Origin: Bilabrum cf. latius
Lineage: Eukaryota
NCBI GenBank assembly: GCA_965178125.1
Contig: OZ237737.1
Coordinates: 1,240,001-1,304,000 of the forward strand
DNA length: 64,000 nucleotides
Reading direction: 5' to 3'
The notes beneath the pieces were generated by a model. The model searched no databases and was not told the DNA's origin. It saw only the letters and a program-made list of their open reading frames with translations. The position numbers and the translations under genes were made by a program. Positions 29,901-58,421 of the stretch are shown here, one piece after another. Each line of letters starts with the position of its first letter. The first letter of the stretch is position 1.

Positions 29901-32900
29901 TTCCTGGAGGCACCACTTGCTGCAGAGGCACCGAGCACAAGGCGACTGCTGTTGTGCCCGTGCTCTTTCGCGCTTTGCTGCTTAGTAGCGTCCTCAATGG
30001 ACTGCTGGATTGAGGTCTTTACCAGTTGCATGGACTCCAGGGATGGCACAGGGAGCGCAGCTTCAGGGTCTTCGTCCTCTTTTCCGGTGCCCGGGCGCCC
30101 ATCATCGTCGCTATGCTGCTTGCGCTCCTGCTGCTCGAGTTTGTACCTCGCCAGTGATGCCGCACCGGCGCTGGAGGCCTCCGTTCCAATGAACTCCGTC
30201 GACTTTTCCCTCAGCTCGTGCAAGTGCCCCTTGGCCTTCGTGACGGCCTCTCGCAGCTGATCCAGCTGCCTGCGCAGAACCAGGACACGAGACCTGGCGC
30301 TCATCAGCTGAACCTCGTAGTCGGTCAGGGGCTGGTCGCTGCTGTGCACTGCCACGCCACGCTTGAGCGCAGCGGCAACCTCAGCCTTTGCGGCGGGGGT
30401 CGCCGCTGCACGGATCAGCTCCTGCGCGGTGGTGGACCCCCCATCGAAGAGCGACGTCGAGCCGCCCACGCCAGGCACGCCCTCTTGGCCCAAGAGTCTG
30501 GACCTCGCTCCGACAGCCTCCGCGGCAGTGTGCTTCTTTCCAAACCGCTTTGCAACTTCCTCGGGCCGAGAGCCCTTGCTCCACTTGCGATTCCTGGCGC
30601 CCGGCTGTCTTGACCTGGACATGCCCTGTTTCTGCTTGGCCATCCGCTCGAGGCGCTTCTGGCCCTTGGCCTGACGCATACCCGTCTCCGCAGCGTCAGA
30701 GTCCGACGCCCCGACGTCTTCTCCATCGGTCCGAGCTGCGGCCTTTTCCTCGTTCAGGTCCAGGGTGCTCGTGCTCTCGCCCTTGCTTGACAAGGCGGCG
30801 CGAAGCTCCTTCCTTCGCTGGTCGGCTACCAGACTCCCGTGACCGTCGCGCGGATCCACGCGATTCTAGGGCGATGGAGCCACGAGAACTTTCGGCAGTG
30901 GATCCGTTGACCTGATCTAGGAGGCTGCCGCGTACAACGGTTGCTCTGGTCCTAGAAGCTGCTCGTCAGTCGCAAGCGCGGCCTTATCGCGCGCAGCCTT
31001 GTCTCGTTCGGCGTGAGGGTCAAGAATAGAACGCATCGATGCAAACTGTCCCTCCGCAGACATGACAGGGTACAGCGGTGTGCCAGGGCTACGAGGATTC
31101 CTGCTCTTTATCGCAGTGCTGCCGGGACTGACGCTGGCACGGTGACCTGCGGCGCCATCCTTGCTGACGAAGCTTCGCATGTGTCCCCGAATGGTACCCC
31201 GGGTCGCAAGCCGCGTGCCTGTACGGCTAGCCGATCGCTTGCTCGGAGGTTGGACAATTGGCTTCGTTCGAGCCTCGGATGGCAGCGCCAGCAGCGGGGT
31301 GCTGGATGCCGGCGGCCACGGAGCAGCTGCTGGCATCGGCACGATCGGCGGATGCACTCTTCGGGTGGTGCGTTTCGCAGCGAATGACCTAGGCGGCTGC
31401 AGCCCCATCCGAGCCCTAGCGACTTCACCCTAGCTGCTGAGCACCTGCTCCATGACGTGCTGCGCATTCGCGAGCGCAAGCTGGGGAAACTGCAGCCACA
31501 CCCAGCGCCGGTACAGGTACTGCCCGAGCGTCGCCTCTGGCTCCGATGCAGCCGGCAACGGAGGTGCCATCTGCAGCTCAATCACCGCCTTGGCGCTCGT
31601 TGCGCTCCCAGGCTTGAGAGAGCTATCGGTATCACCGTCACCCCCGGTGGGCGGCCGCACCCTCACCCCGAGAGCCTCGATGTCCTGCCAGCGAAGCGGT
31701 CGATGCAGGAAGCGGAGCATTTTCGACGGAACACTTGCGATGCTGGATCTGCCGCCTGCGCCGGTCCCCTTTGGCGGGTCGACAGCATCGCGGCTCGCAA
31801 GCTGCCGTGTGCCCGGCCTGGCGGTTTTGCCATTGCCCACAAATCCTGACGTGTCGGCCACTGAATCAGCGCCAGTTCCGCCCTCGCTGTCGTCCCCAAT
31901 GTACGCCTTCTCTGCTTCTCCAAACGACCAAAGAAACTCAGCAATGGTTTCAATCCGCTGACAAGCACGCACGAAGGCTGGCTTCCGTTCCAACATCCAT
32001 TTCTTCAGGCTTTGATCGTAAACTCGCACCGCATCGATCCGAGCAAAGTTGTCTCCGGCACCAGTCGGCAACCAAGCCGTCGTGTATCCTCGTCGCCTAT
32101 TTTCCTTGGCGCTTTTCTAGGCGGCGTGGCTCCTTTGGTCCTTTGGAACCATTGCTTGCTTCTCGTATCGATGCAGCGTGTCCTAGACACCCGCCATACC
32201 GTCAGTAGAAACATCTATGGCACTTGACTTGCTGGGCAACGCACCAAGGAGCAAGCTGCTGCAAGCTATCGCATCTGCAGCAGTAGCTCCAGCCGGTAAG
32301 ATCGCATGCTCGGCCTTTCCCCAGTCCGGTGGCATTCCAGCGGAAGGGGGAGGCGGCTCCCGGTCTAGGTCAGGATCAGCGGGATAGTGCAGGTGGTTCT
32401 GCATCTCGCGAGCCAAGTCAAGCACCGTGGGTACACCTCGCGATGGGTCTTGGCTCGCCACCGAGGAGCTAGCCCGAATTGCAGCGTCAATTGCGGAATC
32501 TTGGGTCCAGGCCAATGCCTCACCGGCAATGGAGCCGATTGAAGCCACGAGGTGCGTGGGCGGGGCCGTGGACAGCCCCGTGGCTGACATGCTGGCCCCA
32601 ACAATTCCATAGCACATCCTAAGACCGGAAGCAGCTGCAAGAACTGGCGGCAGCTGCGACTCGAACGGGTCTGACGGCGCAAAGAAGGCCGCAGCCTCGT
32701 GCGGCGGCGGCTTAACGCTACCGATGAGATCAGATGCGAGCTACATGGTCGGTGATTCCATGCAGCCGGGCATCGCTGGGGATGGCATCATCCCACCACC
32801 GTCTCTATCCCCGGCGCCACTTCCAGGAAGTGATACCAAGCCTATTTCAGCGGCAGCACCCGACACGCCGCGCGCTACCCACCGGAGCCACGGTAGGTGC

Positions 32901-35900
32901 CGAAGTACGGGGCCGGCCGAGTGAAAGAAATCAGACCATTCGGCGTTCATCGCACCCACCGGTCCTCCCTCGAGCGCAGGACAGAGAAACGCCATCTTGG
33001 CCCGCTGTGCCTCCTCGTCGGCAGACCCTGCTCGCCCCATCTGAGCCCCGGTCGCACCGCCGGCGACCATTAGGGCACCCAGCTGCAGGTTGCCCTCGGT
33101 GGAGCCGCCCACGTTGAGCACGCCCCGGGAGCCCTGCCCCGCACCCCTAGAAGACATGCTCCCGCGAGACGCGATCGAGCGCTCACCATACACGATGCCT
33201 TTCTTGAAGCCAGCCGTGGCCGGGTCAGCTGGACCAGCGTCGCCATCGTCTTCATCGCTCCAAGACTACGGCAGACTGTGTGCCCTGGCAAGACACATCC
33301 ACGCCTCGATCAAGTCGTTCCTCGTGTCGCTTTCCGCCCACATGTGCTCTGCTTCGCCCGTGTCTCCCACAACTCGAGCAAGCGCTTCCCAGCGCCTCCC
33401 CTGCTTCAGCAGCCAGGCCACTTCCCGAGACCTGCGTAGCAACGATGGTGACGCTCGAAGCAGCTCACACAGAGCGGAGCGAAGGAGCGGCAGTCCCCTG
33501 CCATAGCTCAACAAGCGCCTCCACACCACAGACCTGAGAATCGCTCGACCAGGAGGCAGAACGAGCCGGATGGCGGTGCCAGACACTTCAAAGACGGTCT
33601 GCAACACGGCTCGCAGGTTCCTCATGAGCTTGGAGAGCGTCCACTGCGGCAGCACAGGCAACTGACCGGTGGGGCTGCTGCCGAAGGACCCACCTGGCGA
33701 AGTGGATGCGCTACCCACTGTGCTGCGAGGCTCTTCTATGTCATGGTTTACCCTAGATGAGCCTCGCTTCTTGTCAAGCAGCTTGGCTCGCTTGCCTCGG
33801 GGGTCCTCGGCGTGGTACTTGGCAAGCACGCCGAGATCGTCGCGCACAAGCCTCGGAAACAAGGCAGCAAGTCCGGCCCCCAGCTCCGAGTCGGTGAGCC
33901 CTGACCTGGCCCCGTACAGCAAGCACAGTGCGGCAGGCAGCATGGGTCCCAGCCCCCTCTCGCTGAAGCCGTACGCCTCAGCTTGCCTGCCCGCGTTGGA
34001 GCTGCCAGCACCCGGCCCTGGCTTCGATACCGGATAGCCTGCCGACAGCGTCGTTAAAACTCGTTCCATAAGATCGCGTGCCCCCGTTGCATCCAGCCAA
34101 GACCGGATGCATGACTCGGCATCCAACCCGAGAGCGCTTGCCGCCCAAGCCCCCTGCCACAGATACCTGTGGAACAAAGCCACAGTCGCAAACGGGTGGG
34201 ACACGATGCGGCAAATCGTAGCTATGCTCACGCCAGACCACTCGTTGGACTCCATCGCATCACCACCTAGCTATACTTGGCCCGATCGCCCAGTCGCACT
34301 GCTCCCGAAGAAGCGCGACTTTGGGGAGGGCCGACCTCCACTCACCGGCAGCATTCTCGTTGAATCCGCTCGTCGCAGAGTCTCGATGGCACCCATGGCA
34401 CGAAGCAGGCGACCAAGCTTGGCCTCTGCCGCTTGTAAAGCAATCTAATTCACTTGCAGGTCGTTCGGTGCAGCAGTAGCTGCGGGGGGAACAGCCGGGG
34501 CCGACCCCCTGCGAGGAGGAACAGCCGGTTTCTTGGGAGGCGGAGGCCGGTCCGACTGCTGGGAATCGGTTCTGCCCTCGGCCTGTCTTGAAGCATTCCT
34601 TGCGCTGGCCTGCTCCTTGCTGTCCTCGAAGTCTTCGTCCTCGTACCCGCTCTCAGAGCTGTATCCCCCGTCGCTATCGTCGTCAGTGTCCTCGGCTCCT
34701 CTGCCTGAGCCAGTATCGCTGTCGGTTCTTGCTCGAGACAACTTCGGCTTAAACGCACCAGTCTTATTACCCTTGTCTCGGCCCCCTGCTTGGCGCATGG
34801 CTCCCGCCAATGCGCCGCCCATCAGCGCACTCTAGCGGCCCTTGAACTGTAGCATGCCGGTGCTGCTTCGCCGGGCATGTGAGCTTGAATGCCGGTCGGC
34901 GTCCACGGAACCGGCGCTAGAGGTCGACATGGCACTCCCACGGCGCCTACCTTCCGAGTCTGCATCTGATCTAGAGGTCGCAGGCAGCCTCGGGTGCTTG
35001 CTAGGCGTTCTGCCGCCGCGCTGCGATGGGCCGCGCCCGAGAGTACCCAGCGCTGCGCTTCCTTGCTTGCTACCGCCACCTCGGCTGTTCCTCTCCTTGC
35101 TCGGAAGAAACACAGAAATGGCCTGCTTCGCAGCCGCCTCCACCGCCCTCATCCCTGCGTGGCCAAGCACGCTCGCCACCGATGCCAGCCTCGCCTCCAC
35201 AGCAGACCACGGCCCGCAGCCCACGAGTGGCCAGTCGCGCCTCGCAATCTCAGCCAGGCTGTCGTCCGAGGGATACCGTAGCAGGCCGCCTTCCGCCTTG
35301 CTGCCGCCCCCCCTGGTGCCATCCCTACCGCGTGATCCCGCAGACTGCATTGAATCCTGAGCAGCCTGCCGCTGAATGAGCATGCGGCTGCTGGACCGCT
35401 GCACCCGCGAGAACGAGTCGTCTGGCCTGGCCCTGCCAAGCTGCAGCCCGGCCCCTTCCGCTTGATCGAGCTTGCATAGATCTTGCAGGATTTCCACGTC
35501 ATCTAGCGATGCGGTGGCAGTGGCAACCACCCTCACGTTGGGTGGGAGGTGCAGCGGAAGCCACTTGAGCCCAGTGAACACCTCGGATCGAAGCCGGTTG
35601 ATCCCGACGATGCACAGCACGAGTTTACCCCTCGAGGACGCGCGCTCCAGCACCCTCGCGAACTGCGACGCGAGCCGCCTCTCGTCCCAAGCAGGCTCAA
35701 ACCCAAGCTCAAAGAACGTGGATGCTTCGTTCACTACGTGCCGCAGCAGCCCCAGCACCGTCCTGCTTTCCCTCGACGCCCCTGTGACGTGAAGCACGAC
35801 GCACTCCTTGGACCCCCCCCCGGGCACTAGCAGTGCGGGGTCGGGCACCTCCATGGCATCTAGGCCACGCCATTGAAGATCCAAAAAGGCCTTGTTGTGT

Positions 35901-36823
35901 CCGCTTTTCCCGTCCGACAAAGCAGCGAGCCGCTACTGGCTGAGTCTCTGGACTCCCAGGTGAGCCGAAGCGATGGACATCCAAGCCCTCGGAGGCAAAA
36001 AGGCGGGGTATCCCTGTGTGACGTGCCATGACGACGAAGCAGAGGGTGAGCCCTGCGAGCTTGGAGTGGGCAAGGCGAAGGACACGCGCTCTGAAGCGCG
36101 GTGACCCCCAGCTGGGGAGCTGCCGCGCTCGCTGCTGCCGCTGCCGCTGCCGCTGGACGCCGAGCTGGCGGCATCTCCCGCGCTATTCCCGGTGCCACCA
36201 GGTCGCACGGCTTCCTGCTTGTCTCCGCTCGAGCTGCTAGCTGCGAGTGCAGCCCAGTAGGGAGTACCTCGTTCCGAGCTGCCGTCAAAAGCAGGCAGCG
36301 CAGCTCGTTGGGCAGGCGTGGTCGGGTCGCCAGCGGCTACTTGCGAGTTTCCCGACTGCGGCCCCCCGATAGGACTTCGCAGCGTTGAAAGCACGCTATT
36401 TTCCTCAGAGACACCTTGCGCCGGGCCACCGTCTCCACGACGACCTGCATCGCCAGCAGACTGAGCAATCGAAGCTGAGCGTCCCGCAGCTCGTGAATTT
36501 GAAACCATCCTGTGCGCTGCCCAATGGCTCAATGCCGCCCCCTTGCCAATACCAGACTATCCCACCAGAAGAAGTGGCGGCCGTGGCTCAGCTATCGTAT
36601 CAGGGTCGCAGTGATGACTCAGCTGCACAAGCATCCTTCGGACCGAAGGCAGCTGGTGCACAAACAGGGGCTGTTGTGTGTGGACCATGGCAGCAGCGTT
36701 ATGAATCGCAAACTCTCGTTCGAGGCTTCCGTTGCGCGGCTGCTAGAATGCGGTTGGTGGCACCTAGCGTTTCGTGAAATCAACGGAAGCATGTGCTGCA
36801 GCGCCGCTGCCACTCGACTTCAT
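26984..36823 (-). CDS. Intronless 3279-aa protein: degenerate NACHT-like P-loop domain (NPHP3/TEP1/NWD type) plus a C-terminal long coiled coil resembling outer-dynein-arm docking complex subunits
   Basis: Twelve track ORFs share one frame, joined only by TAG (18 counted). ATG at 36823, TAA at 26984. Walker A-like LLLVG*SGIGKG; Walker B region LVLCIVGINRL..LKWLPLHLPPNVRVVAT; LLYGARSGLTDSEL; RRSREVAWLLKQGRRWEALARVV; coiled coil AMARLKDSTGVKDAATLLDRW. Confidence 0.75.
27792..27836 (-). repeat. 15-bp coding tandem repeat x3 (ASSRE)
   Basis: tccctggagcttgct repeated three times on the + strand. Confidence 0.9.
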
Positions 36824-36980
36824 GATGGATGTGGCCCTTAGGCAAGCAACGCACTACTGAGTTCACAAATATCACCAAGTCCCAACCTATTTTTACACAG
36901 TTTCTGCGCTCAGGCGCTAAATTGCGAGGCAAAATAGAGTCGCTAACCGATACGTATCAAACTGCACGTTATAAACAGAA

Positions 36981-39900
36981 CGACGCCCTGACGTCGATCC
37001 CACACAGTGTGGCCGAGTGCCTCTGGAGTCCCGGCGGCGGAGGAACTGCGCTTCTGACTACTCCGTACGATGCATTTGAACCACTCGTGGTAGGCACGGG
37101 TAACCTCTTCGGGCCGCCAGAGCACTTAGGCTGGCAGGGATGCGCGTAGCTCCCCCTCGCCGTTCTAGCTGGCCTAGACCCCAGCTCCACCATCATGCAC
37201 ACACTCCGCACCTATTTTGGCGAGGAAGGGGAAGGAATCCACGGGCTTAGCCTGCGAGGACTCACACTGTCAGTGATGGCCCTGGCACAGCAGCGAGGGG
37301 GTTCAGTGCGACTCCACCCAGCCGACAAAGAGGGGACCAGCCTTGCCAACTGGTGTGAGCGACTCAACTCGGACGCCACCGATGACCAAGCGATCCAGGG
37401 CACGATGAATATTGCCATCTCCCGCACCCACTGTGAGGTCTTCATCCCTACAGGAATCAATCCGCCGGGTGGACACGGGTCCCGGAGGCACGCCTGCCTG
37501 GTGCTGCGACCTGAGCAACGGGAGGAGGAAGGAGATGCGGATGCCAGAGTTGTGCGTACGCTGTCAACGAGAGGGGAACTGAACGAGGAACCGGTCATGG
37601 TCCTATCAGTCCGCCCAGGAGACCAATGGGAGGACGGAGTGACCGGGGCGGAACTGCTTGGAGCTCTCCGGGTGATGCTTACGGATGAGCAGAGGACCGA
37701 CAGGACCTGGATACCGGAGTGCTTCCCCTGGATCAATAACCGCAATGCGGTAGTGGGGGACCGAGAATCTGTGTGGTTAGTCGCCCCCGGGACAAGCACG
37801 GCACATCAGCCACGAGGCGTCCAAGGTACTCGCGGGGGCTGGGATCAGATCAGGATCATGGACACGACCCCGCCCAAGTACGTCAGGATTGCAACCAAAA
37901 ATCTGGGACGCAAAGGGAACCTCGAAGCGATGGAGGTTGCCCTTACGGAGACCAAGATGCCCGATGTGTTTGTTGGCACGGAGACACAGGATGCTAGAGG
38001 ACGCTACGTCACTGACGTCCCGGACCTGTACGCGATGGAGACGAGGGCAGGAAACGGAGCCCCACACGGGGTATGCGTCGCCGTCAAACGAGATTCAGGC
38101 CTCGTACTGAGACGGTGGGCAGACATGGGAGATGATGACCTGGATGCGCCGGACTGCCTCGTATGTGACGTCCTGCACCACGACCGACGCATGCTGACGG
38201 TGATAGCCTGCTACAACCCACCGCAAGGGGCTGCCCTCGGGGCAGAGACAAGGGGCTCAGTATTGGGCAAGGCTTTCGTGGTCGATCCCCAGCTGACCCT
38301 TGGACAGCGACGGAGTCAAGGACCGGCAGGCAATTTCACCAGGGACCGACTTGTGGTTACCGGTGACTTCAACCCGACGTAGGCCCGGGACCAAGAGGGA
38401 GCTGGTCAGATGGACTGGTATCTGGAGAACGACATGGGCATGATCGACATGTACCGAGCACCTGCAGGGGGCGGGCCTACGCACAGAGGAGGCAACACAC
38501 TGGATGCCATCTGCATCTCCACTTCTGCGCAGCTGCAGCTAGTGTCCAGTGAAGTGGCTCAAGAGCCAGGCACATATTCAGACCACACGGGGGTGATTGC
38601 AGACCTGCTGGTCACAGTCCCAGAAGTGGAGGACCCGGCAACGCGAGCAACTGCAGTCCCAGCAACAACGGAGCAGGACGATGACGCCCCCTTCAGGGCA
38701 GCGTACTCACGGGTGTCCGACATGCATGTGCAGCAAGAACGCCTGGTTTGGGACTATTACGTCAAGGAATTCGGGTAGGCTACAAGTGCAGTCCGCGACA
38801 TCACTCATTGTGTGCTCGACGCAATTCGCGACCTCAAAAGCTCGACGGGAACCTCGGCTGACCGAGAGGCTGCAGGGCAAGCGGTTACGCAGGCCGTGTC
38901 CTCCGTCAAACTGCTCCTGCAAGGATGTTTCACGGCAGCAGCCGAGACTGTTACAGGCCGACAAATGGCAAACACCGGCCAGGCCGGGCACGTGGAAGCG
39001 TCACGCAAGCGCCACCGCAGGACCTGGGCGGCACGGACGAGATGGGCTGAAACGTGGGGAAAAGCCCATGCCAGCCTCAAGGCCCTTATCGCGGGACCAA
39101 CCACGGAACAAGCTCTTTCAGAGGCCAGAACATGCTTGGCTGCACATCGCCGAGCCAGCCTGCGCCTCGAAGGGCGACAGCGGGGGCTAGATGGACGGAT
39201 GCAGGCAACACTCTGGGGGAGCACAGAGGTGAACCAGTAGGCCCATGAGGGACAGGAGTACTGGACGATGCTCCTTGCCAACCTGGACCATGATCGACGG
39301 GCTGTCTTCGAGACCACCGAGCGAGGGGCACGCAGGACGGGCCACGCACTGCGGAACATGCTGGGAACAGCAAGTCCGAGGGAAGCCCACCGATAGATCG
39401 CTGATGCAATCTCTAGAAGGCAACGAGCTGCACCAGGACTGGAACCAATCACGAACCTAGGCGGAGAGGTGCTTACGGCCGTCGAGGATATCCTAGAGGC
39501 ACACGCACAGCAGCTCTCTCACGCAGGTGGGAATGGAAGTGCGGATGTGGGCGGATTTATGGCCAGGATTGCGCCGCACATGCCCAGGGCAGCGACACCG
39601 CTCAACCTATTCTGCAGGTCGAACGCAGAGGTGGATCAAGCACTGGACAAGCTCAAGCACAACAAAGCTGTGGGACCTGATGGGATCAGGGCGGAATTGC
39701 TGACCAAATGCTAGCCATGCTCTGAGGAGGACGGGTGTCTGCGGCGAAGTGACGCTCTGTTGGACCTCCTCAGGGCCATTTATAATCTCACACTCTTCTC
39801 GGGGATTCAGCCTGAGGCCTTTCAGGAGGGGTTCATGCGGCCGGTCTCCAAGCGCAAGCAGGGCACAGGAGTCACAGGAGTCGACGAATTCAGGCCAATA

Positions 39901-42545
39901 TGCTGGACCTCGGCTCTCTCGAAGGTCGTAAGCACCATCGCAAACCAGAAGGTCATGTGGTACTGCGAAAACCACGGACTCTTCGGCCAGGATTAGGCCG
40001 GATTTCGCATCGGCAAGAACTGCCAGCAGGCCTACTCAGCGGTGATGGAATGGATTACCCAACGAAGGGGTGCTGGAGGTTTTCTGGTATTCTTTGACAT
40101 CAAAGGAGCATTTGACAGTTGCAAGTGGAACATCATCGAGGCCATCATGACGGAGCAAGGATGGGGACGCCAGACGGTCCGCTTTCTCATGGCCCGCATG
40201 CAGGTGGCCATCCGCGTTCGAGACCCACTCACCAGGAGGGTCTCTACCAGAGTGCAGAAGACGGCGGGCACCCCCTAGGGCGAGATTCTGTCTCCCACCA
40301 TCTTCCTGGTACTGATGGGGGTTCTCCTGGAAACGCTGCGGAAAGAGAGGCTCCAGCACGGGCACCATCAAAGGATCGTGACCGACACCGGACGATACGT
40401 TGAATGTGGACAAGTCGGGTACGCAGACGACTACGTGGCACTGACGTCGAACTGGAACGAAGCAGTGGCGGTCATGAAGCTAGTCAAGAGCCTGTTTGCA
40501 CTTGCGGGCATGTAGCTGGGAATCAAGCCCCTGACAGCATCGGGCCAGGGAACCAAGACAGCGATCATGGCCTTTGGCTACGCTCGGGACTCAATTCCTG
40601 GGGACATGCCAGAGGGCGTCGCATGCAGAGCAGCGGACGCGGGAGAGACGGATGGGGAGTGGACCATCCCACTTGCCTCATCCTACCTGTACCTCGGTCT
40701 ACTCATTTCGACCCAACCAGTACGGATCAGCCCAGATGAAGTAGCTGGGCTGACGCAGGCGAGAGACATCTGGGTAATTGATATGGCACCCCACGTACGC
40801 AGGAGGATTGCGATGGCGTACCGGGCGGCCAGGGACATCACACGAGCGGCGGTGAACGGCAACTGGGCGGTCTCCCTGCACGCCCAGCTGCTCCATGCAG
40901 GAGCAATCACGAGTGCATTCTACGGAGCAGAGGCAGCGGCATGTGCAACAGGATGGGACACCTTGTCAGGATTAGGATATGGTTCCCAAGTTTTCTACGG
41001 GATGGAACTGAACCTGGAAGTCCTCAAGATGCTGGACAAATTCCTGCTGGATACGCGCTGGATGATTGTCAGCGGATCGACACAGGTAAGGCCCTTCACC
41101 ATGGGCGGTCGATACGTGCCAAACCTTGCGATGGACACTGAGCTGCTGACGGCATCGGCAGCAGGGCGTGTTGCTATGGGCCTGCTGGACCTGATCGAGT
41201 GTCCCTCGAAGAAGGGCCTTGATGTTGCGGCCAGGTTCATCCACCAGGGCCGATTCCTGCAGGGACCACCAGTACAGACAGGCCCACTCGGGGCCGCGCT
41301 GGCACTGGGATTCAGGATCAAGATGGCAGGGTGGACCCACCGGATCGATGACGCGAAGGACTGGCTGGGATGCCAGGAGACTGCAAAAAAAGTCACAAAG
41401 TGGAGGAAATCCAAATCCGGAGCTGCTGACCGATCGTTCACAAGCCTGAGCCTGGGATGCTCGCACGATCCGGCACTGTCGGATTGGGACCGGGAGAGAG
41501 CTGCGCTCGGAGTGGTCATGCTTAACCGGTACGCAACGAAGGGACGGTATGCCTTCGGACCAGGAGCCATGCCAACAGCAGCGGTGGTGCAGGAATACGG
41601 CCACCAAGGAAGACGAATTCTGCGCATCCGAGCTGGACAATACCCGCAACAGGGCACGCCCAACCTTCAAGTGATGGGCACCGCGGTAGAGCAGATGGAG
41701 CGGGCCGAGCATGACCATCATGCCGGAACGAGACCGTGGCAACCCGATGATGCGGATCAGAATAGAGGGAGGTCCCCTGCCTCCCTCCGGAAAGCATGGG
41801 CGAAGACAGCTCTCGCTCAGGACCCTTGGGACGAGAAGCTGGAGCGCACCAGCAGGGCCAAGCCAATCGTCGAAGACGCACTCACTCGGATAGAGCGTAC
41901 GATTGCGCGGTCATCGGAACGGACAGCTGTCAAGGAGCTGGCCAACCGAGTGGTGCAGGTGATCAGGAACCAGCTGCGCTAGCAGGAGTAGCTGACGTGC
42001 AGGCAGTGGATGCGAGGCGATGCGGCGGCTGCTCTTGCCGCCACGGCCACGCAAGAGCTGATAGCGGCAACCAATGCGAACGCTCGGCTACAGCGACGGG
42101 TGTTTAAGCCCCACGGCTTGCTAAGGGACATAGAGAGGCAATGGGCCAAAGGCATGAGCGCGTGCATGCTAGCCTCTCTGAAGGATCGTGAGACGCAGAG
42201 ACGGTCATGGAGGAGGAAATGGTGGGTCCCGGCAGGGGACCCTGATGTGGGACTGGACCGCGCTTTGTGCCGGGCACATGCTCCGCACCTGTATGCTTTC
42301 TCCCTGTGAAGGCATCAGGCTGAGGGCTTGTGGGGGACCACATTGATGGCGAATAAAGGGGACTCGGCGGTGTAGGCTGAGATTGGGGGGCCTTTGGCCT
42401 GAAAGGGTCGGGGGTCTTGTAGTCCTTGTTTGAGGACTCCTCTGGATTCAGGTGATCACTCGAACTCCTTCGGGGGCAACGGTGCATCTGGGTGCTTGTG
42501 GAATCTTTACCCAACAATGTATTTCTGTATTTCTGTATTTCCCCC
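36981..42545 (+). mobile_element. Non-LTR retrotransposon (LINE), single-ORF APE+RT type, apparently intact; 5' boundary uncertain (about 36900-37157)
   Basis: APE endonuclease and RT motifs in one frame, a structured 3' UTR and a (TATTTCTG)n tail. Inserted between two divergently transcribed host genes. Confidence 0.9.
37195..42309 (+). CDS. LINE polyprotein, 1704 aa (unknown N-terminal domain, APE endonuclease, reverse transcriptase, long C-terminal region)
   Basis: One frame with 10 TAGs (38380, 38776, 39238, 39394, 39712, 39994, 40276, 40513, 41980, 41989), no TAA, TGA or frameshift inside; ends in TGA. APE motifs: IATKN, DVFVGTET, GVCVAV, ACYNPP, VTGDFN, TLDAI, SDH. RT motifs: KAVGPDGI, FRPI..SALSK, *AGFR, FFDIKGAFD, GTP*GEILSPTIF, YADD, YLYLG. 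Confidence 0.92.
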
Positions 42546-42707
42546 GGGGGGCCTTTGGCCTGAAAGGGTCGGGGGTCTTGTAGTCCTTTGTTTTAGGGCT
42601 CCTCTTGATCTAGGTGATCACCCAAACCCCCTCGGGGGCGACGGTGCATCTGGGTGCTTACGGAATCTTTACCCAACAATGTATTTCTGTATTTCTGTAT
42701 TTCCCCC
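42385..42707 (+). repeat. Diverged head-to-tail duplication of the LINE 3'-terminal ~161 bp (copy 1 42385-42545, copy 2 42546-42707)
   Basis: Both copies start ggggggcctttggcctgaaagggtc and end acccaacaatgtatttctgtatttctgtatttccccc, with roughly a dozen internal substitutions. Confidence 0.95.
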
Positions 42708-43435
42708 CATCGGGCTCAGGCAGATGACACCACTGGCGACAAATTCTGGGTTTGAAGAATGTGCCCGTGCGTATGCCTGCCTGTGTTCACTTTATCAACG
42801 TGGTGCTAACACGTGCTGGGGTTGTGCCCTACAGGCAACGCCACTGTGTTGGAGCATAGCTCCACCGACAGGTTTCGTTGTGCTCGTTGCGTCCAATAAT
42901 ACCGCGTCCCAAACATTGAATAATAAGGTTATGCTTCGAGTTTGATTCCGGCCTCCGGAGTATGGGACGGGGGACGGACACACCACTGGCTGCGACCAAA
43001 ACTCAGGCTGTCGTGTTGGCGACCACTGGCAGTGGCTCCGAATGGATGGCCTGGTCGATGTGCACCGCCTAGATCTACTAAGAAACAAGTACCAACCACT
43101 CCAAGCATAGCCTGAAGACAACCCTACTCTTGGTGCTTTCAATGGGTGGCACGCATTCGGACCTGGCTGCAAGCTCGAGACGCTCTGATTCAGAGGTGCA
43201 ACGAGCAACCGACATAATCGATACGATCGGCCCTTCACTGGTCTAGATCGACCTTAGCACAGTTCGTGAGGCCAATCTAGTGCACGACTGTGAATTAATT
43301 ACTGATGCTCATCTGAGAAGTACCGATACATGCATTGCCCCCGTCTACATCGCAGGAAGGGCGTTGCATCGAGCTCGAGCGACAGTTGTATCCGCTGGAA
43401 GCTCGATCAACACTGGTCATGTAGCAAGTTCAGGC

Positions 43436-46400
43436 ATGGATGCATCGAAGAGTCTCGGGAGGCGGTCCGACTCCAGTCGTGATGTGCTTCGCAAGTTCGC
43501 GGGCAGTCGACAATCTCAAACTGGCCCGGGCCAAACCAGCCCAATGAAGTCCACCCGCAAAGCATCCGCTGGTGCGTCTTCGCGCGGAAGCACACCTGAC
43601 AAAAGTTTGGGGATGAACAGATCAGAAACGCCCCCTGCCATGCTCTCATCGGCCCTTGACGAGACGGTCTTCGAGGCCAGAGAGGCGCTTCCGGTGCACC
43701 CTTGCTGGGTCAGTCGACTGGGCTGGCTTGAGGTCATGCAAGACACCTCCGGACTTCAGATTGATGCATTACCCCCGGAAGCACAGCGGGCGATGGAGAC
43801 GAGGCAACGGGCGGCAACCGGTGGCGGGGCAGCCGCCCAGACCCCCAGGGGGGCCCCCGCCACCGGAGTCCCCCCCGGGCAGACGAAGCTGCTAGAACCG
43901 CAATCCCCCGGGTCGAAAAGCGGATACAAGGGCCCCCCGGGCAGCATGACCGCTGGGCTCCTGGCACTGACGATGGCTGAGATAGGAGGGGCTGAAGGTC
44001 CTGGGGACGATAGTGCAACGGGAGCTGGTAGTGCCGAGCAAGGCTCTGGCAGCAATCAAACGTCCGACGGTAGAGCTAGAGGCAATCATGGGAAGCCGAG
44101 ACAGCAAGCAAACAGCTTGATACTGCCCTTGGCAACTTTCGAGCACTTCACGATGGCAAGGCCTGATGGCATGGCTCGGTGGGTGGATGCCGTTAGGCTA
44201 AGGGCGGCGTGCACGTCGGCTGCAAGGGCGAAAGCTGTCAGTGATTTCTCCACGCAGTGGGCGACTCAAGGTGCCAAAGTGCTCGGGGCTGTCCCAGAAA
44301 CATCTGTCCTGCAGACCACAGGCCAGCACGGTGGTGCACCGCACGATGGCTTGCGCGGGAGCGTTGTCCACGGAGGCGTGACACGCACGCTCACTGCCAG
44401 CGAGTCGGCCGCATCACTCAGTGGTGCCCTTCGAACCTCGGAGCGGGGTGCAGAGCAAGCAGCTGCGCGCGCAGTCCAGAAGGCCGAGACGCTCGAGGGC
44501 GCAGTGCGTACAGACGCGGCCCGCATCATCCTTGCAGAGGCTGGCGCTGCGTGGCTGGTGGACCGACAGGTGGACTGCATCGAGCTGCTTTGCTGCTTGG
44601 CGTTGTTCTCGCGGGCCCCTGTGGGTGACCGGCTTGCTTTTGTTTTCGAGCTTTTCGACGCCAAGAAGGCCAAGGCTCTCCGCAAGCCCGCTGCTCTCCA
44701 GATGATCCTGATGGTGGCACAGTCGTGCAGGAAGGTCGGCCTGATCGCATTCCCGCCATCGATGGAAGAAATGCTAATGCTATTGGACGACCTGTTGCTC
44801 ACGGGAAAAGGTATCGATTCCACGAGGACCGCTGTCCCGTCTTCCATCTCGGCGCAAGAGGCGAGACACGTGAGGCAGTACCTCGACGGGGTCGGTGGGG
44901 ACATCGCCGGCAATCAGGCTATTGGTCTGGGAGGAGCTGACGGCACGTCGACTCGCGGTGAAGGAGAAGGCAGCCAGGTTGCCAAGTCAATGGGAATGCT
45001 GAGCCTGGCGATCCCAGCGTCGCCGCGGACCTCTGGTCAAGCCCGCGTCCAGAAGCCGCTTGCCACGATTTCGACAGCCAGCAGGAGCTCCATGGCGCCT
45101 AGCTCCACCAGTAGCAGCCACCACGTTGCCACGCCCCACGCGATCTACGGCGAGCCGCTCAGCGCGTCTCCCAGGGGCTTTCCAAAGAGAGAAAAGAAGA
45201 CGTTTACGAAGGGATTCGAGAATGTCCACACAGGCGACGACCTTGCTGTACAATCCGAAGATTCCCAGTCCAACCCTCGTCCAGTTCCACCTCCTAGAAC
45301 TGGCCAGCGGCATGCCTTCCAAAGGGGCGGCCGGGTCATGAAGACGGCTGCAGCCGATGCCCAGGCAAAAAGTGGGACACTTGATAGTGCCAGTGGACGG
45401 GACGATTCACATGCAGGGCAAGAGCTGCTGCTGAGTCAGCAAGCAACTGATTTGGGGCTGTGGGGCAGCGGTAGCGAGGGCTCGCTACAGAGCGTGGATT
45501 CGGCCGCTGTCCGCAGGGCCGGCAAGAGGCGCGGAAAGGCTGGCGCTCGAAGTCGGACTGGGGGTGAAAAAACAGCTGCATCTCGCGCGTCTACTGACAA
45601 GCTCATCAGCAAGCCGAAGAGCTCCCTGGAGCGGGCAAGCAGGATACTGAAGGAAGCGTCGCACCACGGCGACCGGGCCTACGCCATTTCGCAAGAGGCT
45701 TGGATGCATTGGGCCAGGACATCCGTGGTCGCATTCGAGTTCGTCAAGCTGCTAGAGGCAGAGCGTGTCCGTCTGCTTATCAAGGTATTCGGAGAAGACA
45801 TTGCTTCCGCACCAGGCTTTGCGACTGGAGTGTCAGCTGCAGAAGACACTAGCACAGTTGTTGCAGCTGCACTGCGCCAGCACCAGAATGCAGTGTCAGG
45901 CATGCAATCGACGGGGCCCGATGATGACAAGGGCAAGGAAAACGCTGGGGAGAATGCACTGGGGGGTGGTAGGTCGCAGGTGAGCCATTTTGCAGGCAGG
46001 GGGGCCCGCCGTGGTTCGATCACTAGACTGATCGGAGACGGCGTCAAGCACCGCAGACGGTCACAGGTGGAAGCGTAGCTGTCTGCGGTTGCTGGCGGTA
46101 GCATGGGTGCTGGTATCGCTGACGAGGTGGAGGGAGCGACCGACCCACTGAGTCTCTCTGCCAGCGTTGCCCTCGGGATCAGCACGAGCCATGCGCACCA
46201 CAGGGACGACCTTCGGCCCATCACGCCGACGTCCGCGGCTGTGATGGCGAGGGAAGCCAAAGAACGCCGCAGGGCCTCGCAGTCTTCTGTACGCAGCGGG
46301 ATTCACAAGGGTTAGTTGGCTGGTGGGGCGCCACGGAGGCGTAGCGTAGGCTCAGTGTCGTCACTCGGGGGCGGAGCCGGTGGCAGCTTGCAGCGGCCAT

Positions 46401-49400
46401 CGGACTCAAGGCGCACGCGCCGAGGTTCGATGCAGAGTGGGATTAGCCCCGTTCCTGCGGCTGCAGGACAGACGGCTGTATCGACAGAGAAGCAGGAGCG
46501 CCAGGTGACATACCCCAAGTCCCTGCCAGCCCGCCCGCCGATGCACTCTGCTCGCATCAGCAAGATCGCCACGGAACATGACCTGGTCTGGCTGTCGCGA
46601 GATCTTGGTTTCTCGATGGCAGAAATGCGGCGACTGCTTAGGTTGTTTGCTTAGTATGCTGGTGCTTCGGGCTAGGATCTCACGAAGCCGAAGCGGCCTG
46701 CCCCACCAGCAAAGGTTGTGTATCGAAACCGCAGCAAGCCGCTCGCACCAGTCGGCAGCTCTGACGCTGTCGGTCGCAATGTCAAGAAAATGCCCAGCCG
46801 GCCTGGGGCAGGGATTGTATCGCGCATGCTCACGTCACAAGAAGAAGAGGCCAAGGCGCAGGCAGCTGCGGCCGCAGCAGCCGGCTTGCCACCTCCGCCC
46901 GGACTTGCGCAGCATGTCGGTCAGTTCGGCAGTACCTATGGTGGCAAGGAGGGCAACCGATGGTCAGAGCTTGACTAGCTTGGACATCTCCGCGCGTTCC
47001 GCAACACTCTTGACATGGCTGAGTTCCGCTTCCTCATGAAAGAAGCCCTGGGCGGATTCGCAGGCGAGGACATCTTCGAGAGGCTTTTTGCGGTGATGGA
47101 TCTTAACAAAGACAGCTGCGTCAGTTTCTTGGAGTGGACAACCGGTCTGAGCCTGCTCCTCCGCGGCAGCAAGCAGCAAAAACTTGCGCTGATGTTCGCT
47201 GTCTACGACGAGGATGGCAATGGGTCGCTGTCGCTTGACGAAGTCCAGAAGTTTGTTCACAGGTCTCTGAATGGAACCACTCGAAAGGGGCGACATTCTG
47301 AAGGCAACAAGCGGGCGTAGGAAGACACGCAGGCGTTCGCAGCCGAGGTTATGCGTACCATTGACGCAAACTCGGATGGGGCCGTGACCCGCGAGGAGTT
47401 CGCCACGGCATTGATACGGGAGCCAGCGCTATTCGAGGCATTCTCCAGGTCAATTGCACCAGCGTTGGCAAGCAGTGCCCCTATCAATTTTGCGTACGCT
47501 GCGTAGACAGCCCAGCGTCGCATGGAGGACGAGAGCAAGCAGCGCGATGAAGTCGTCCGCAGGGTGGTTGAGCGCACGTCGCGTCTCGATCTCGGCCTGC
47601 TCTTCCGAGTGTGGAGGCGATACGGTGGCAGTCTTGGGGACAAGAAGAAGGGCGAAATACCAGATGCTCCCGGAGAAGGCGGGTCTTAGAACCCAAAAGC
47701 CGCAGGAGACGACGACGAGCCCGATGACTTGGACCTCAGACATGCCGCACGTACCGGAGAGCTCACGTTTCCAGCCTTTCAAAAGCTCATGGTAGCTGAA
47801 TTTGGAGTTACCCAAGCAGTGTTCCCGCTCCTTCGTCGAGTATACCACCACTTTGACGCTGCGATTGGGGATGGCAACGGGTCCCTCTCGGTGCATGAGC
47901 TGTTCCAAGGGCTCAGTCAGGTTCTCACGGGTTCGCTTGAGCAGCGCGCGAGCTTCTTCTTCGATCTCTACGACGCCAATTCTTCGGGGATCCTCGACTT
48001 GACTGAAATTGGGGCTCTCCTGTCTCTCACACGGAGCGGGGCTGACGATATTCTTCGCATAGGACGGGAGCAGCCCGGTGATGGGTCAGACGGCGGCAAC
48101 TCCTCGGAGGAAGAGGGCGGGCTTGACGGGGCCAGTAAGCACCACGCAAGCACGTCAGCGTTTGGTCAGGGTCGCCGGGTCGTCTCAGACGAGGCCAGGG
48201 AGAGGCGTCGACGTTGGAGGGAGCGACAGCGGGCCATGCGACTCGAGCGGTAGCGTAACCGGAGAGCCATCGTGGAGCCGCTCGCAGCCCTTGCCCGTGC
48301 GGGTCTGCCATCCACCCCGGAAGAGCTTCTCGGTCAACTGGATGCCAACGGTGATGGCCAGGTGCAGAAGTCAGAGTTTATCGCCGCCTGTCGCAGCAAT
48401 CCTCGCTTGCTTATCATCCTTGGGCTTGCGTTTGGCGGGCGAGCTGTGTCGGAGGTCATCGACGAAGAAATGGAGAAGGCGGGGCTTGGATCCGTGAATG
48501 GCAGCCTGGCGTCCAGCTCAGGCAGGGGCCCACGGAGTGGCCCTCCAACAGCATTGCCGCAGATTGACTTAACGGAAGAAGCCTCAAGCGGCGATGCGGG
48601 CGACGATAACAGCGATGCAGGCGCAACAGCCTCGCCAGAGCCATCTCCGGTGAGTCTTTCTGGTCTTAAGCCGTTTGCAGCGCGTGGAGGACCCGCACGA
48701 CTGACTGGACGGCACCCAGCGTTGTCACGCAGCCGCGTGCCGGGACCGATCGCTTGCCAATCAAACAGCAAGGCAAGTCTGCTGAGTGATTCAACGTCTC
48801 CGATGCGCAGCAGCAAGACTTCCCTGACTACTTCCGTTGGGGGGCGCCCCCGAGTCGGTACTGAGGACACTGCCACGAGTGCCGGCTCCACTGACTCAAC
48901 GGGTTCGGCGGACAACTCTCGAGGCGGCCGGCACAGCAAGCCACGAGATAGCGAGACCGAAGCAGCCGCCATGCAGGCGCGGGCTCTGCTGCGAGCACCC
49001 TCGGACTTGCAAGAATCGGACACAAGGCACCTGCGGAACGCATCGTCGAAAGCGACACTCGATTCGATCGCGGACCAGGCTGCCGTCTGTCCTGGCGACA
49101 CAGCCGGTGGCAAGGTCCTGGCAAAGACGCCGGTGCAGACCTCCGACCTTGCCTCTGACCTTGCCACCGAGATGGGCGCCACTGCGAATGGGTCTCTGTT
49201 TGCCCCAGGTTAGGAGCACGCCGCGTGGTTCCTGCTATCCAGAAGGGTTGCTGAGAACACAAAGCGCATCCTACAGCGCAGTGCGCTAGAGCGGAAACCA
49301 ACAGCACTCCTTGGCGAAGCTGGCGGACTCGGAGGGTGGGAAGATGGGGAGGCACCGAGCACAACTAGTGCTTTGCGCAGACACCGGGCCATACATGCTG

Positions 49401-51433
49401 CAACCGGCACAGTGTCCCCTTCAAAATCAGAGTCGCCGCGTGCTACAAGTCCCCGATCGCCCAGGGTTGACCAAACTGGTGCTGACTCGCCGCGGGTAAA
49501 GCTTGCTTTCGGAACGCAGTCACCAGCTAAAAGAGTGGCTGGGGCAGCCGCTAAAGCCTCGAATCGCGCTGATGCCCAGCCATGGTCCAGACACATGCGA
49601 ACGTAGCTAGCCATGATGAAGGCTCACGAAGAAGAGGAGCAAAAGGAGAAGTATCGCAGGGTGCAGGCCAGGCTCACCGCCGAACTGATGAAGGTGGAGC
49701 GCCTCGAGAGAGAGCAAGCCAAGGTCAATATCGCTTCCGGTGGGAGCGGGAGTGCTGGACAGGAAGCCGCACTAGCAGCTGCCAGCATCGCCGCAGCTTC
49801 GACGGAGCCGGGTGTGTCGGATTGGGGGTGGCGTCATGGGCTGCTAGGAGAGCTTGGCCGAAAGCGACTGGTTGGCTCTACCCGCGGCCGCCTCGGGCTT
49901 CACTCAGCCGTGCTGCCGGGCGCAGTGGGAGGCGTGGAGGGCGAAAACAAGGGCAAGGGCAAGGCACGGATTGCGTTCGGATGCACGGCCAGCCGCAACA
50001 CGCTCGAAGTAGCGATCCCCAGCCATCTCAAGGAGCAGGTCATCGCAGAGGCCATGCGCGAAGAACGCAAGAAGAATCCAATGCTAGGGATCACGAGCAA
50101 CCAGCCGGTATGGCGGGAGCGGAGCGCCACGTGGATGGAGGAAGATACGAAGTAGGCCGGGCGACATGGCCAGGTAGATGCCAGGGGCGGTGGTGCCGTG
50201 TAGGTGTCACCGATTCGCTAGGCCGGACACGTGGCCCAACCCAACGCAGTCCCACCCCAAGCTGGCGTTTCGCTGCAGAAGCTGACAGGTCGCGTCTTTG
50301 CGGGCGTCGGTGAGGCAGCCCTGCGCTCTGCCAGGCACGAGCTGCGACAGGCGAGTACACGGGAGGAGCGAATCATGATTCGTTCTCATCTGGTGCAACA
50401 GCAGAAGGTCTCAGAGCGGCTGGATGGAGCCCGTGCCAAGGCGCGGATGAACGCACGCATCAAGCACCTTCAAGTGCACAAAAGGCCTGCGCCCCCGGTC
50501 GTGATCACAGATGCGCCGCGCACCCTTTTCGCCGAGTCACGCTCTTCTGTAGTGGAGTCGAAATCACACGCAGAACTTGGTGGCCTTTCGCAGGCAAGCC
50601 AGTTGGAAGGCCTCAGCGCCAGCGACATCGAGAGATCCGTGTCGCCGAGCAGATCACCCCTTCTTGCTTCCTTCCATGGTCGTGCCACTGCCAGCCAGGC
50701 GGCTGCCATTGGATTCGCCCCCGTTCCCAAGTTACACATGGAGGGAATGTCGAAGGGGCAGCATCCGATGAGTCAGCTGCGAGGCGGGACATCCCGTGCC
50801 CCCGGACCACATGGAGTTCGACACGGCGGTGCTGCCGCCGTTCAAGCGGCTGGCAGGCAAGTGCTCTCCGCGAGGGAGCGGATGTTGCCTGTTGGTGGCA
50901 ACCCTGGTGGCATTGGTGGCAACCCTGCCACCAGGGCTAGGGCAGCAAAGAAACTAGCGTTTGGGAAAGCAGTGCAGAAGGGCGAGCAGAGTTCCCATCA
51001 CCCAGCAGAGCACGGACATGCAGCCAGCAGCGTGCACCGCCAAGACAGGAAAACACGCCGTCCAAGGGGAGGCTTCGGTAGCACAACCATTGAAAGCCTT
51101 CAGAAACTGCAGAAGAGGCTCGGGAGGCACGAGGGTGGAGGCAGCGCTTCTGAAGGGGCCAAGGCTAGGGGCAGATCTGGCGGGGTGATGTCCAAGGCGG
51201 ACGCAGCTGCCGCTGCGGCCGCAAGGGCGAAAGCCAGGCAGAGGCGGATATAGCGAGCGCACGAGCCGCAGAACTAGGTGTACTTCTATGGCAAAGGGCT
51301 CAAAACGCGCACGAAGCAGGCGACAGCGCGCGCAACTGCTGCTGCACTCGCCGCACGGGCAGCCCAGGCGGAGGAGGACTCGGACGATGAATGGGCCGGG
51401 GTCAAGGGTGTGCAGGACAATGTCATGTACTGA
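43436..51433 (+). CDS. Intronless 2665-aa EF-hand protein with two recoverin/calcineurin-B-like modules, a degenerate N-terminal module and long disordered regions
   Basis: Ten track ORFs share one frame, joined by 16 TAGs. ATG at 43436, TGA at 51431. EF loops DLNKDSCVSFLE, DEDGNGSLSLDE, DANSDGAVTREE, DGNGSLSVHE, DANSSGILDLTE, DANGDGQVQKSE. NCS-type linkers RGSKQQKLALMFAVYD and GSLEQRASFFFDLYD. Confidence 0.85.
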
Positions 51434-58332: not shown

Positions 58333-58383
58333 ATTTAAGCGGTTCGGTAACTTAACCCAACAATGTATTTCTGTATTTAAGCG
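58333..58383 (+). mobile_element. Extremely 5'-truncated LINE insertion (33 bp) flanked by a 9-bp target-site duplication
   Basis: atttaagcg at 58333-58341 and 58375-58383 flanks gttcggtaacttaacccaacaatgtatttctgt. The stretch acccaacaatgtatttctgtattt is identical to the LINE 3' end. Confidence 0.8.
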
Positions 58384-58421
58384 TAGTGAAAACCAAGACA
58401 GGCTGTGCTGCGCATCAAATA

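Follow-up and report, generated by a model that had tools for sequence, protein, structure and literature searches.

A stretch of 64,000 nucleotides from contig OZ237737.1 (the whole of which is referred to here as the window) carries one copy of a non-LTR (long terminal repeat) retrotransposon of the APE (apurinic/apyrimidinic endonuclease) type, that is, a long interspersed nuclear element (LINE). The copy occupies positions 36986..42545 of the forward strand, from its 5' junction to the end of its first 3' tail, as delimited by contig junctions and depth. Our reading, which we hold as a whole to be likely, is of a LINE copy in a host that translates UAG as glutamine (Gln): the family to which the copy belongs is young and multi-copy, the TAG codons in its frame are ordinary, and the copy itself is probably truncated at its 5' end.

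Reading frame and TAG codons of the element

With TAG read as Gln, a single open reading frame (ORF) of 1704 codons followed by TGA spans 37195..42309 (+). It contains ten in-frame TAG codons – at residues 396, 528, 682, 734, 840, 934, 1028, 1107, 1596 and 1599 (codon starts 38380, 38776, 39238, 39394, 39712, 39994, 40276, 40513, 41980 and 41989) – and no frameshift. Neither TAA nor TGA occurs in frame, whereas 37.5 are expected over 1704 codons (P~3e-17), the expectation being the combined TAA and TGA rate of the two off-frames of the same DNA (2.2% per codon). Under the standard code (table 1) the frame is cut 10 times and falls into 11 pieces, the longest being of 395 and 471 amino acids. 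The first-pass annotation of this DNA, made from the letters alone, had described one 1704-residue ORF with endonuclease and reverse transcriptase (RT) under UAG=Gln and without frameshift, a description borne out by the count of ten TAG, no TAA or TGA, and a terminal TGA. That the standard code would fragment the element was also correct, although the fragments number 11 rather than "about nine"; the limits given for the ORF likewise stand, except that the frame is in fact open further upstream, to 36829.

The catalytic motifs named in that annotation were all located in the ORF: GDFN at residues 390-393, SDH at residues 462-464 and YADD at residues 1076-1079. It had, in addition, assigned TAG to the conserved Gln of two RT motifs, QxGF and PQG. 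TAG934 lies within "GQD-q-AGFR" and TAG1028 within "GTP-q-GEILSP" (q marking the TAG), and when the protein is aligned by phmmer with a solved R2 protein, the Gln residues of "QRGF" and "KQGD" stand opposite them.

TAG accounts for 10 of the 90 Gln-type codons of the LINE (11%) and for 96 of the 748 Gln-type codons of the host genes (13%). The nearness of the two shares suggests that the LINE family has been resident long enough to match host codon usage. Each of the ten TAGs is an ordinary Gln codon, and their frequency is that of the host: they represent neither nonsense mutations nor a special adaptation, and they stand in the LINE frame because the genetic code of the host reads UAG as Gln. 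The LINE relies on the recoding, yet so does every host coding sequence.

All 12 of the host ORFs examined contain in-frame TAG (96 TAG per 16,760 codons). The same 12 ORFs hold three TAA and seven TGA codons, every one of which is the terminal stop of one of the 10 ORFs that end within the window; none of these 10 ends at TAG. Since TAG alone occurs in frame, and TAA and TGA only at the ends of host ORFs, UAG alone has been reassigned: in the nuclear code of the host UAG is Gln, whereas UAA and UGA remain stops, which is the assignment of NCBI table 15. The alignments that set UAG against Gln in homologues are all from within the LINE family. Reassignment of UAG alone to Gln is rare among eukaryotes, and the LINE helps to establish this rare nuclear code in a GC-rich eukaryote.

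Copies, tails and the 5' end

Contigs from four public runs (X2, X5, X6 and X9), each from a different study, were compared with window positions 34000-46000. In X2 the unique flanks have depths of 41.5-42.2, and element contigs with 0-1 differences have depths of 409.5, 435.9, 642.7, 689.3 and 890.5; pieces of the element thus stand at 10-21x flank depth. Summed X2 depth reaches ~9300 at the tail (~220x flank) and is ~10x at the 5' end. Most pieces are close to identical (189 of the 252 compared are at least 99% alike), and loose ends with differing flanks occur at several internal points of the LINE and, in X6, also behind 42544. The depth gradient is a 5'-truncation gradient of a near-identical LINE family, with long copies numbering roughly 10-20 and tails some 200; the family appears to be young and present in many copies. 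Within the 64-kb window, tblastn with the LINE protein found no second copy.

The 3' untranslated region (UTR) lies at 42310..42517 (+), or measures ~230 nt when the terminal (TGTATTTC)x3 is included, and its last 133 nt fall within a 162-nt tail module that starts at 42385. The terminal repeat forms the 3' tail (42518..42541, +): the TGTATTTC tail pattern has 5 matches in the window compared to 0.00 expected from shuffles. The first module is followed at 42546..42707 (+) by another of 162 nt and 92% identity, which ends in its own (TGTATTTC)x3 at 42680-42703 and most likely represents a second insertion, severely 5'-truncated, that landed behind the first tail. The contig of the unique 3' flank begins at 42677. 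In three other contigs the tail is joined directly to an internal point of the LINE (39042, 41457 and 38247). A 33-nt mini-copy of the tail end, at 58342-58374 (within 58333..58383, +), is flanked by the 9-bp direct repeat ATTTAAGCG (58333-58341 and 58375-58383) and is an extremely truncated insertion with a target-site duplication. Taken together, the tail-to-internal joins, the second module and the mini-copy with its duplication point to target-primed insertion that favors tail-like sequence.

We infer a family with target-primed reverse transcription, a preference for tails and present activity, of which the window copy would be a truncated member. LINE RNA would be translated by the recoded apparatus of the host; the LINE protein would then nick target DNA and, with the 3' tail (TGTATTTC)n as the site, prime reverse transcription. 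Where the latter stopped short, 5'-truncated copies would arise, and preferred landing sites would be target sequences that resemble the tail, among them the tails already borne by resident copies.

The 162-nt module (42385-42545 and 42546-42707) has a depth of ~190-220x flank, and X2, X6 and X9 have different sequence just upstream of 42384; the module may be common to another LINE subfamily or to a short, non-autonomous partner resembling a short interspersed nuclear element (SINE), which would have taken over the tail. Its predicted RNA fold is not distinctive (z=-1.33). No LTRs were found by self-BLAST, the sole repeat being this tandem module.

At the other end of the element, the unique flank contig of X2 stops at 37015 and the repeat contig starts at 36986: the overlap of 30 bases is typical of k=31 contigs and places the 5' junction of the LINE at 36986. 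The frame is already open at the junction, 70 codons ahead of the ATG at 37195, and stays open upstream of that ATG through 36986 to 36829. The in-frame open stretch before the first ATG (36986..37194, +), with one extra TAG at 37147, is probably not a 5' UTR but coding sequence derived from a longer ancestral ORF; a Cys at 37141-37143, invariant in a three-sequence alignment with the relatives L001 and L003 (two metagenomic loci described below), lends this weak support. An X6 contig (record 16; 1860 nt) continues upstream of 36986 for 560 nt that are unlike the window, at a depth of 11.5, which is that of the rest of the LINE (host ~2). X2 has one alternative predecessor at 36986: its last 30 letters are the same as those of X6, and it is in frame without a stop. 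In L001 and L003, moreover, the ORFs run for >1100 codons upstream of the part matching the N-terminus of the window LINE.

It is probable, then, that the window copy is 5'-truncated at 36986. A copy so truncated would lack the promoter and the front of the longer ORF, and is likely not autonomous, though no disabling mutation is found in the part that remains. The label "intact", which the first-pass annotation had given to the element, is doubtful: other copies run at least 560 nt upstream of 36986 and the ORFs of relatives are >1100 codons longer.

The alternative that survives best, although we consider it unlikely, is that the copy is full-length and autonomous: it would start at 36986 with a 209-nt 5' UTR and the ATG at 37195, and the longer ORFs of the relatives would be a lineage-specific N-terminal addition. 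Such a copy would account for a 1704-codon ORF without defect, with an ATG start and with all APE and RT motifs. It would also allow for an independent N-terminus: the first 230 residues, taken with the pre-ATG stretch, show no significant similarity to L001 or L003 (BLASTP E=1.8; hhalign probability 1.4%). The codon-usage signal of 36985-37194 is weak (+3.3 vs ~+15 in ORF controls). These last two results weigh against truncation, the argument for which is indirect: of the 560 upstream bases the last 30 letters were read. The depths in the runs are contig depths rather than copy numbers and so approximate, X2 may be the source sample of the window assembly, hence not independent, and the comparison of runs takes in the best-supported rows, with 351 differences, 104 loose ends and 431 pieces lying outside it. 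No target-site duplication of at least 6 bp was found around the main copy. Among longer or similar-length proteins there were no fragments from longer copies that cover 36985-37146. A full-length copy is, however, difficult to reconcile with an X6 contig that extends 560 nt past 36986 at LINE depth instead of host depth, with a single alternative predecessor in X2 where many flanks would be expected, and with a frame that is open from the junction itself. It is also at odds with the depth of identical contigs, which along the body still increases from 410 to 890, the pattern of a truncation gradient. Truncation at 36986 is the reading that we retain.

Relatives and the meaning of TAG

A HMMER search returned 12,592 proteins at E<=1e-3, yet only 5 at E<=1e-30, and the close matches are short fragments. 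Three of these (P0004, P0010 and P0095) begin with the Met next after the position of TAG934, the start that would result from standard-code gene callers stopping at a TAG. The earlier expectation that standard annotation would break the element is thereby confirmed in its relatives: standard-code pipelines fragment the LINE together with every large host gene in the window, and public protein sets already hold the fragments of relatives. The Gln of PQG is Q in P0004, P0005, P0010 and P0013.

A scan of metagenome contigs gave four loci, L001-L004. L001 has an open frame of 2232 codons that contains 38 TAG but neither TAA nor TGA, and the standard code leaves it no ORF that reaches 300 codons; L003 is open for 2701 codons with 37 TAG and no in-frame TAA or TGA; L002 is open for 1033 codons with 15 TAG, ends with TAA at the same C-terminus as the window LINE and has a 3' tail of (TACT)x5.8. 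All three are open solely when TAG is a sense codon. The relatives live in other TAG-sense genomes of differing GC content.

Comparison among relatives bears directly on the amino acid for which TAG stands. When the window LINE is aligned with L001, L002 and L003, the reliable columns offer 59 cells opposite TAG, 17 of them filled by Q and 6 by TAG, and the log-likelihood for the identity of TAG is best for Gln (-147 vs -168 for Glu, a margin of 20 log units). L001 and L002 share 621 aligned codon pairs, in which 163 changes are synonymous and 48 nonsynonymous; TAG occurs in 12 pairs, of which four are TAG/TAG, six TAG/CAG, one TAG/CAA and one TAG/GTT. There is, in addition, a diverged sister subfamily, represented by an X2 contig (record 6) that spans 40245-40803 with 75 differences in 559 nt and is also found in X5, X6 and X9. 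Third codon positions account for 27 of the 36 differences listed, and 27 of 32 changed codons are synonymous if TAG is Q. What sister copies carry at the TAG sites was the point on which the first-pass annotation had let its reading turn: the subfamily has CAA at TAG 40276 and CAG at TAG 40513, the two sites (2/2) within its span, an outcome that speaks for Gln.

UAG is Gln, to judge from the alternation of TAG with CAG and CAA among subfamilies and relatives. Because this alternation takes place under strong purifying selection, it provides clean internal evidence on the meaning of UAG. Long residence of the LINE family in recoded hosts is supported by the TAG share (11% vs 13%) and by the TAG-sense frames of all three long relatives, and the suggestion that the family evolved in such hosts accords both with that share and with the alternation of TAG with CAA/CAG.

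We regard it as very improbable that UAG stands for another amino acid or is an ambiguous stop or read-through codon dependent on context. Such a meaning could be read into the 36 of 59 TAG partner cells that are neither Q nor TAG, and into the column of TAG1107, which in relatives is E, T or Q. A tRNA scan found no tRNA genes, tRNA-Gln(CUA) included, in the 64-kb window or in loci L001-L004, and no suppressor tRNA in the window, which tells against UAG=Gln; eRF1 was likewise not seen, and the between-copy comparison covers the two TAG sites within 40245-40803. Yet Gln is the best assignment by 20 log units, TAG stands opposite CAG or CAA in 7 of the 8 discordant L001/L002 pairs and at both sister-subfamily sites, TAG falls on invariant Gln motifs, and it is the stop of none of the 10 host ORFs with an end inside the window.

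A dead LINE pseudogene with nonsense mutations, in an organism with the standard code, would explain why table 1 cuts the frame 10 times, but has next to no probability: all 10 interruptions are TAG, TAA and TGA number none against 37.5 expected, frameshifts are absent, host genes show the same TAG-only pattern, and subfamily changes are mostly synonymous. The TAG-only pattern refutes the standard-code pseudogene reading. Another possibility, that of a single-copy, domesticated host gene of LINE origin, to which a long intact ORF under purifying selection might point, is just as improbable given the many copies with their truncation gradient and many different flanks, the terminal repeat tail, and the mini-copy with its target duplication.

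The code may also act as a barrier to horizontal transfer, as the first-pass annotation had proposed: this is plausible, and consistent with it all close relatives found are TAG-sense. The idea is not special to the LINE, being equally true of all genes of recoded hosts. A literature search turned up nothing specific on the code as a barrier to transposon transfer, which is no proof of absence.

A wider, joint reading is possible but at present doubtful. The element would be a member of a LINE lineage not yet described, whose single giant ORF has at least 2700 codons and includes an N-terminal region of >1100 residues with conserved Cys/His; the lineage would so far occur only in UAG=Gln organisms (the host at ~60% GC and at least two backgrounds at ~50-54% GC), would land on tail-like sequence, and would be locked into a UAG-recoded clade that is itself, perhaps, an undescribed UAG-only lineage.

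The N-terminal extensions of >1100 codons lie at L001:90-3566 and L003:1-3747. Pfam identified no family in either of them, or in the C-terminus of L002. In the extension two Cys...His pairs are conserved, and the counterparts of one pair in the window copy are Cys 37141-37143 and the His of "SRTHC"; a cysteine-protease-like domain in the extension is a guess only. An AlphaFold2 (AF2) model of 36985-37866 with L001 and L003 was unusable (predicted local distance difference test, pLDDT, 34.3). The fourth locus (L004:1-1934), closely related to L001 and L002, has decayed, and its coding sequence switches frame at least three times. Its "GTPQGE" uses a CAR codon where L001 has TAG, and the public fragments P0009 and P0013 match pieces of its frame.

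Encoded domains, known elements and the host neighborhood

The single large ORF is laid out as an N-terminal region, an APE endonuclease, a long linker, an RT and a C-terminal region of ~530 amino acids. The APE-type endonuclease domain (37879..38613, +) has the motifs NLG, GTE, GDFN, LDAI and SDH, which supply all of the endonuclease positions N, E, D-N, D and D-H. The match in Pfam is weak (E=0.017; 15.3 bits vs a curated cut-off of 24.5), while an hhalign comparison with the APE domains from eight remote LINE proteins yields a probability of 92.6% (E=4.7e-7). An AF2 model of the domain is of moderate quality (pLDDT 64.5; predicted template modeling score, pTM, 0.74). With this model, Foldseek finds the human L1 endonuclease 8sp7 as best match (E=7e-9) and matches the TRAS1 endonuclease 1wdu with a template modeling (TM) score of 0.69, although identity to the solved L1 and TRAS1 endonucleases is only 12-16%.

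The RT domain (39772..40719, +; motifs QxGF, FFDIKGAFD, PQGEILSP and YADD) contains the Pfam RVT_1 core at 39880-40518 (+; E=2.2e-17, 63.9 bits vs a cut-off of 29.6). Its best sequence matches in the PDB, both of them weak, are R2 9nl2 (E=1.4e-6) and L1 ORF2p 8c8j (E=1.3e-4). The C-terminal region (40720..42306, +) is without known domain; it aligns with L002 and L003 through a shared C-terminus up to the very last residues, and in a protein atlas its TAG-free stretch matches solely eukaryotic RT-containing clusters (0.94). Pfam scans of the N-terminus, linker and C-terminus returned chance-level rows only and no further family; RNase H is absent from the Pfam scans of the LINE, and has a match in 5 of the 15 full-length remote relatives scanned. 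A word-based protein search with residues 220-1260 gave two weak matches only.

Among known systems, the RT aligns with that of both human LINE-1 ORF2p and Bombyx/avian R2, and the endonuclease model matches that of L1. R2 differs in having a restriction-like endonuclease rather than an APE, and both L1 ORF2p and R2 are without the long N- and C-terminal regions of the window LINE. "Stringent" LINEs of the CR1/L2 type have short tandem repeats at their 3' ends, and for some LINEs, Zepp of Chlorella being an example, the tails of resident copies serve as insertion sites. The window LINE is like these in that its tail is an 8-nt repeat and not poly(A), in that a conserved 3' module is present in many truncated copies, and in that new copies lie directly behind old tails; it is unlike them in having no separate ORF1 and a much longer ORF, the likeness being one of description and not of RT phylogeny.

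Ciliates already provide examples of LINEs flourishing in recoded hosts, according to two reports (PMC5405496, PMC11441545). Both concern APE+RT elements that multiply under non-standard nuclear codes: the germline LINE groups of Paramecium tetraurelia (PMC5405496) and the LINE families of Loxodes magnus, which show full-length copies of low divergence and insertion polymorphisms (PMC11441545). Paramecium LINEs are alike in ending in short tri- to penta-nucleotide repeats, and groups 1-3 differ in having a separate ORF1 where the window LINE family has one very long ORF (PMC5405496). The ciliate hosts are AT-rich, and either have reassigned both UAA and UAG or use an ambiguous code, in contrast to ~60% GC and UAG only in the window, and their LINEs are likened to ours by description, not by sequence relationship. 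The codon assignment of the window host, that of NCBI table 15, is the same as that given for the nuclear code of Iotanema spirale (UAG=Gln, UAA and UGA stop; PMC5304391). That organism is described as an anaerobic fornicate with a code derived from a transcriptome, whereas nothing ties the window host to fornicates; by our own reasoning the TauD-type dioxygenase of the window host fits an aerobe better.

A literature search turned up nothing specific on a LINE described from a UAG-only eukaryote, which is no proof of absence. With LINEs in recoded hosts known, what remains of greater interest is the great length of the family's one ORF, its unnamed clade and, in a GC-rich host, the rare UAG-only code. 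As a young, high-copy element with an 8-nt repeat tail that lands behind its own tails, the LINE is a usable marker for strain typing, and is usable also for the study of target choice.

The window surrounding the LINE has a GC content of ~60%, and its genes are intron-poor: they are giant ORFs with few or no introns, of 2285, 2158, 1358, 3279, 2767 and 1871 codons (among others) when TAG is a sense codon. Examples of large host ORFs with in-frame TAG are found at 2-6856 (-), 15734-22210 (-), 26984-36823 (-), 43130-51433 (+) and 58386-63998 (+). The host proteins are rich in Ala, Ser, Gly and Arg and have eukaryotic domains (DENN, FH2, EF-hand, cadherin/TIG, LCCL, GH39, TauD and pirin); for the GH39 protein, the matches in the protein atlas are fungal and bacterial clusters.

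The LINE copy lies inside the divergent intergenic region 36823-43130, between two giant host genes. Its 5' junction (36986) is ~80 nt past the end (36903) of an X5 contig that covers the upstream gene, and the copy is therefore located in the presumed promoter region. None of the public runs is listed as RNA. Element pieces in X5 have depths of 50-500 compared to 10-22 for the neighboring genes, a weak hint of transcription of the LINE family. In the 5' part of the downstream host gene, 90 bases with GT..AG ends (43266-43355) are skipped by one X5 contig and kept in an X2 contig: they are probably a spliced intron, which would mean that X5 contains RNA.

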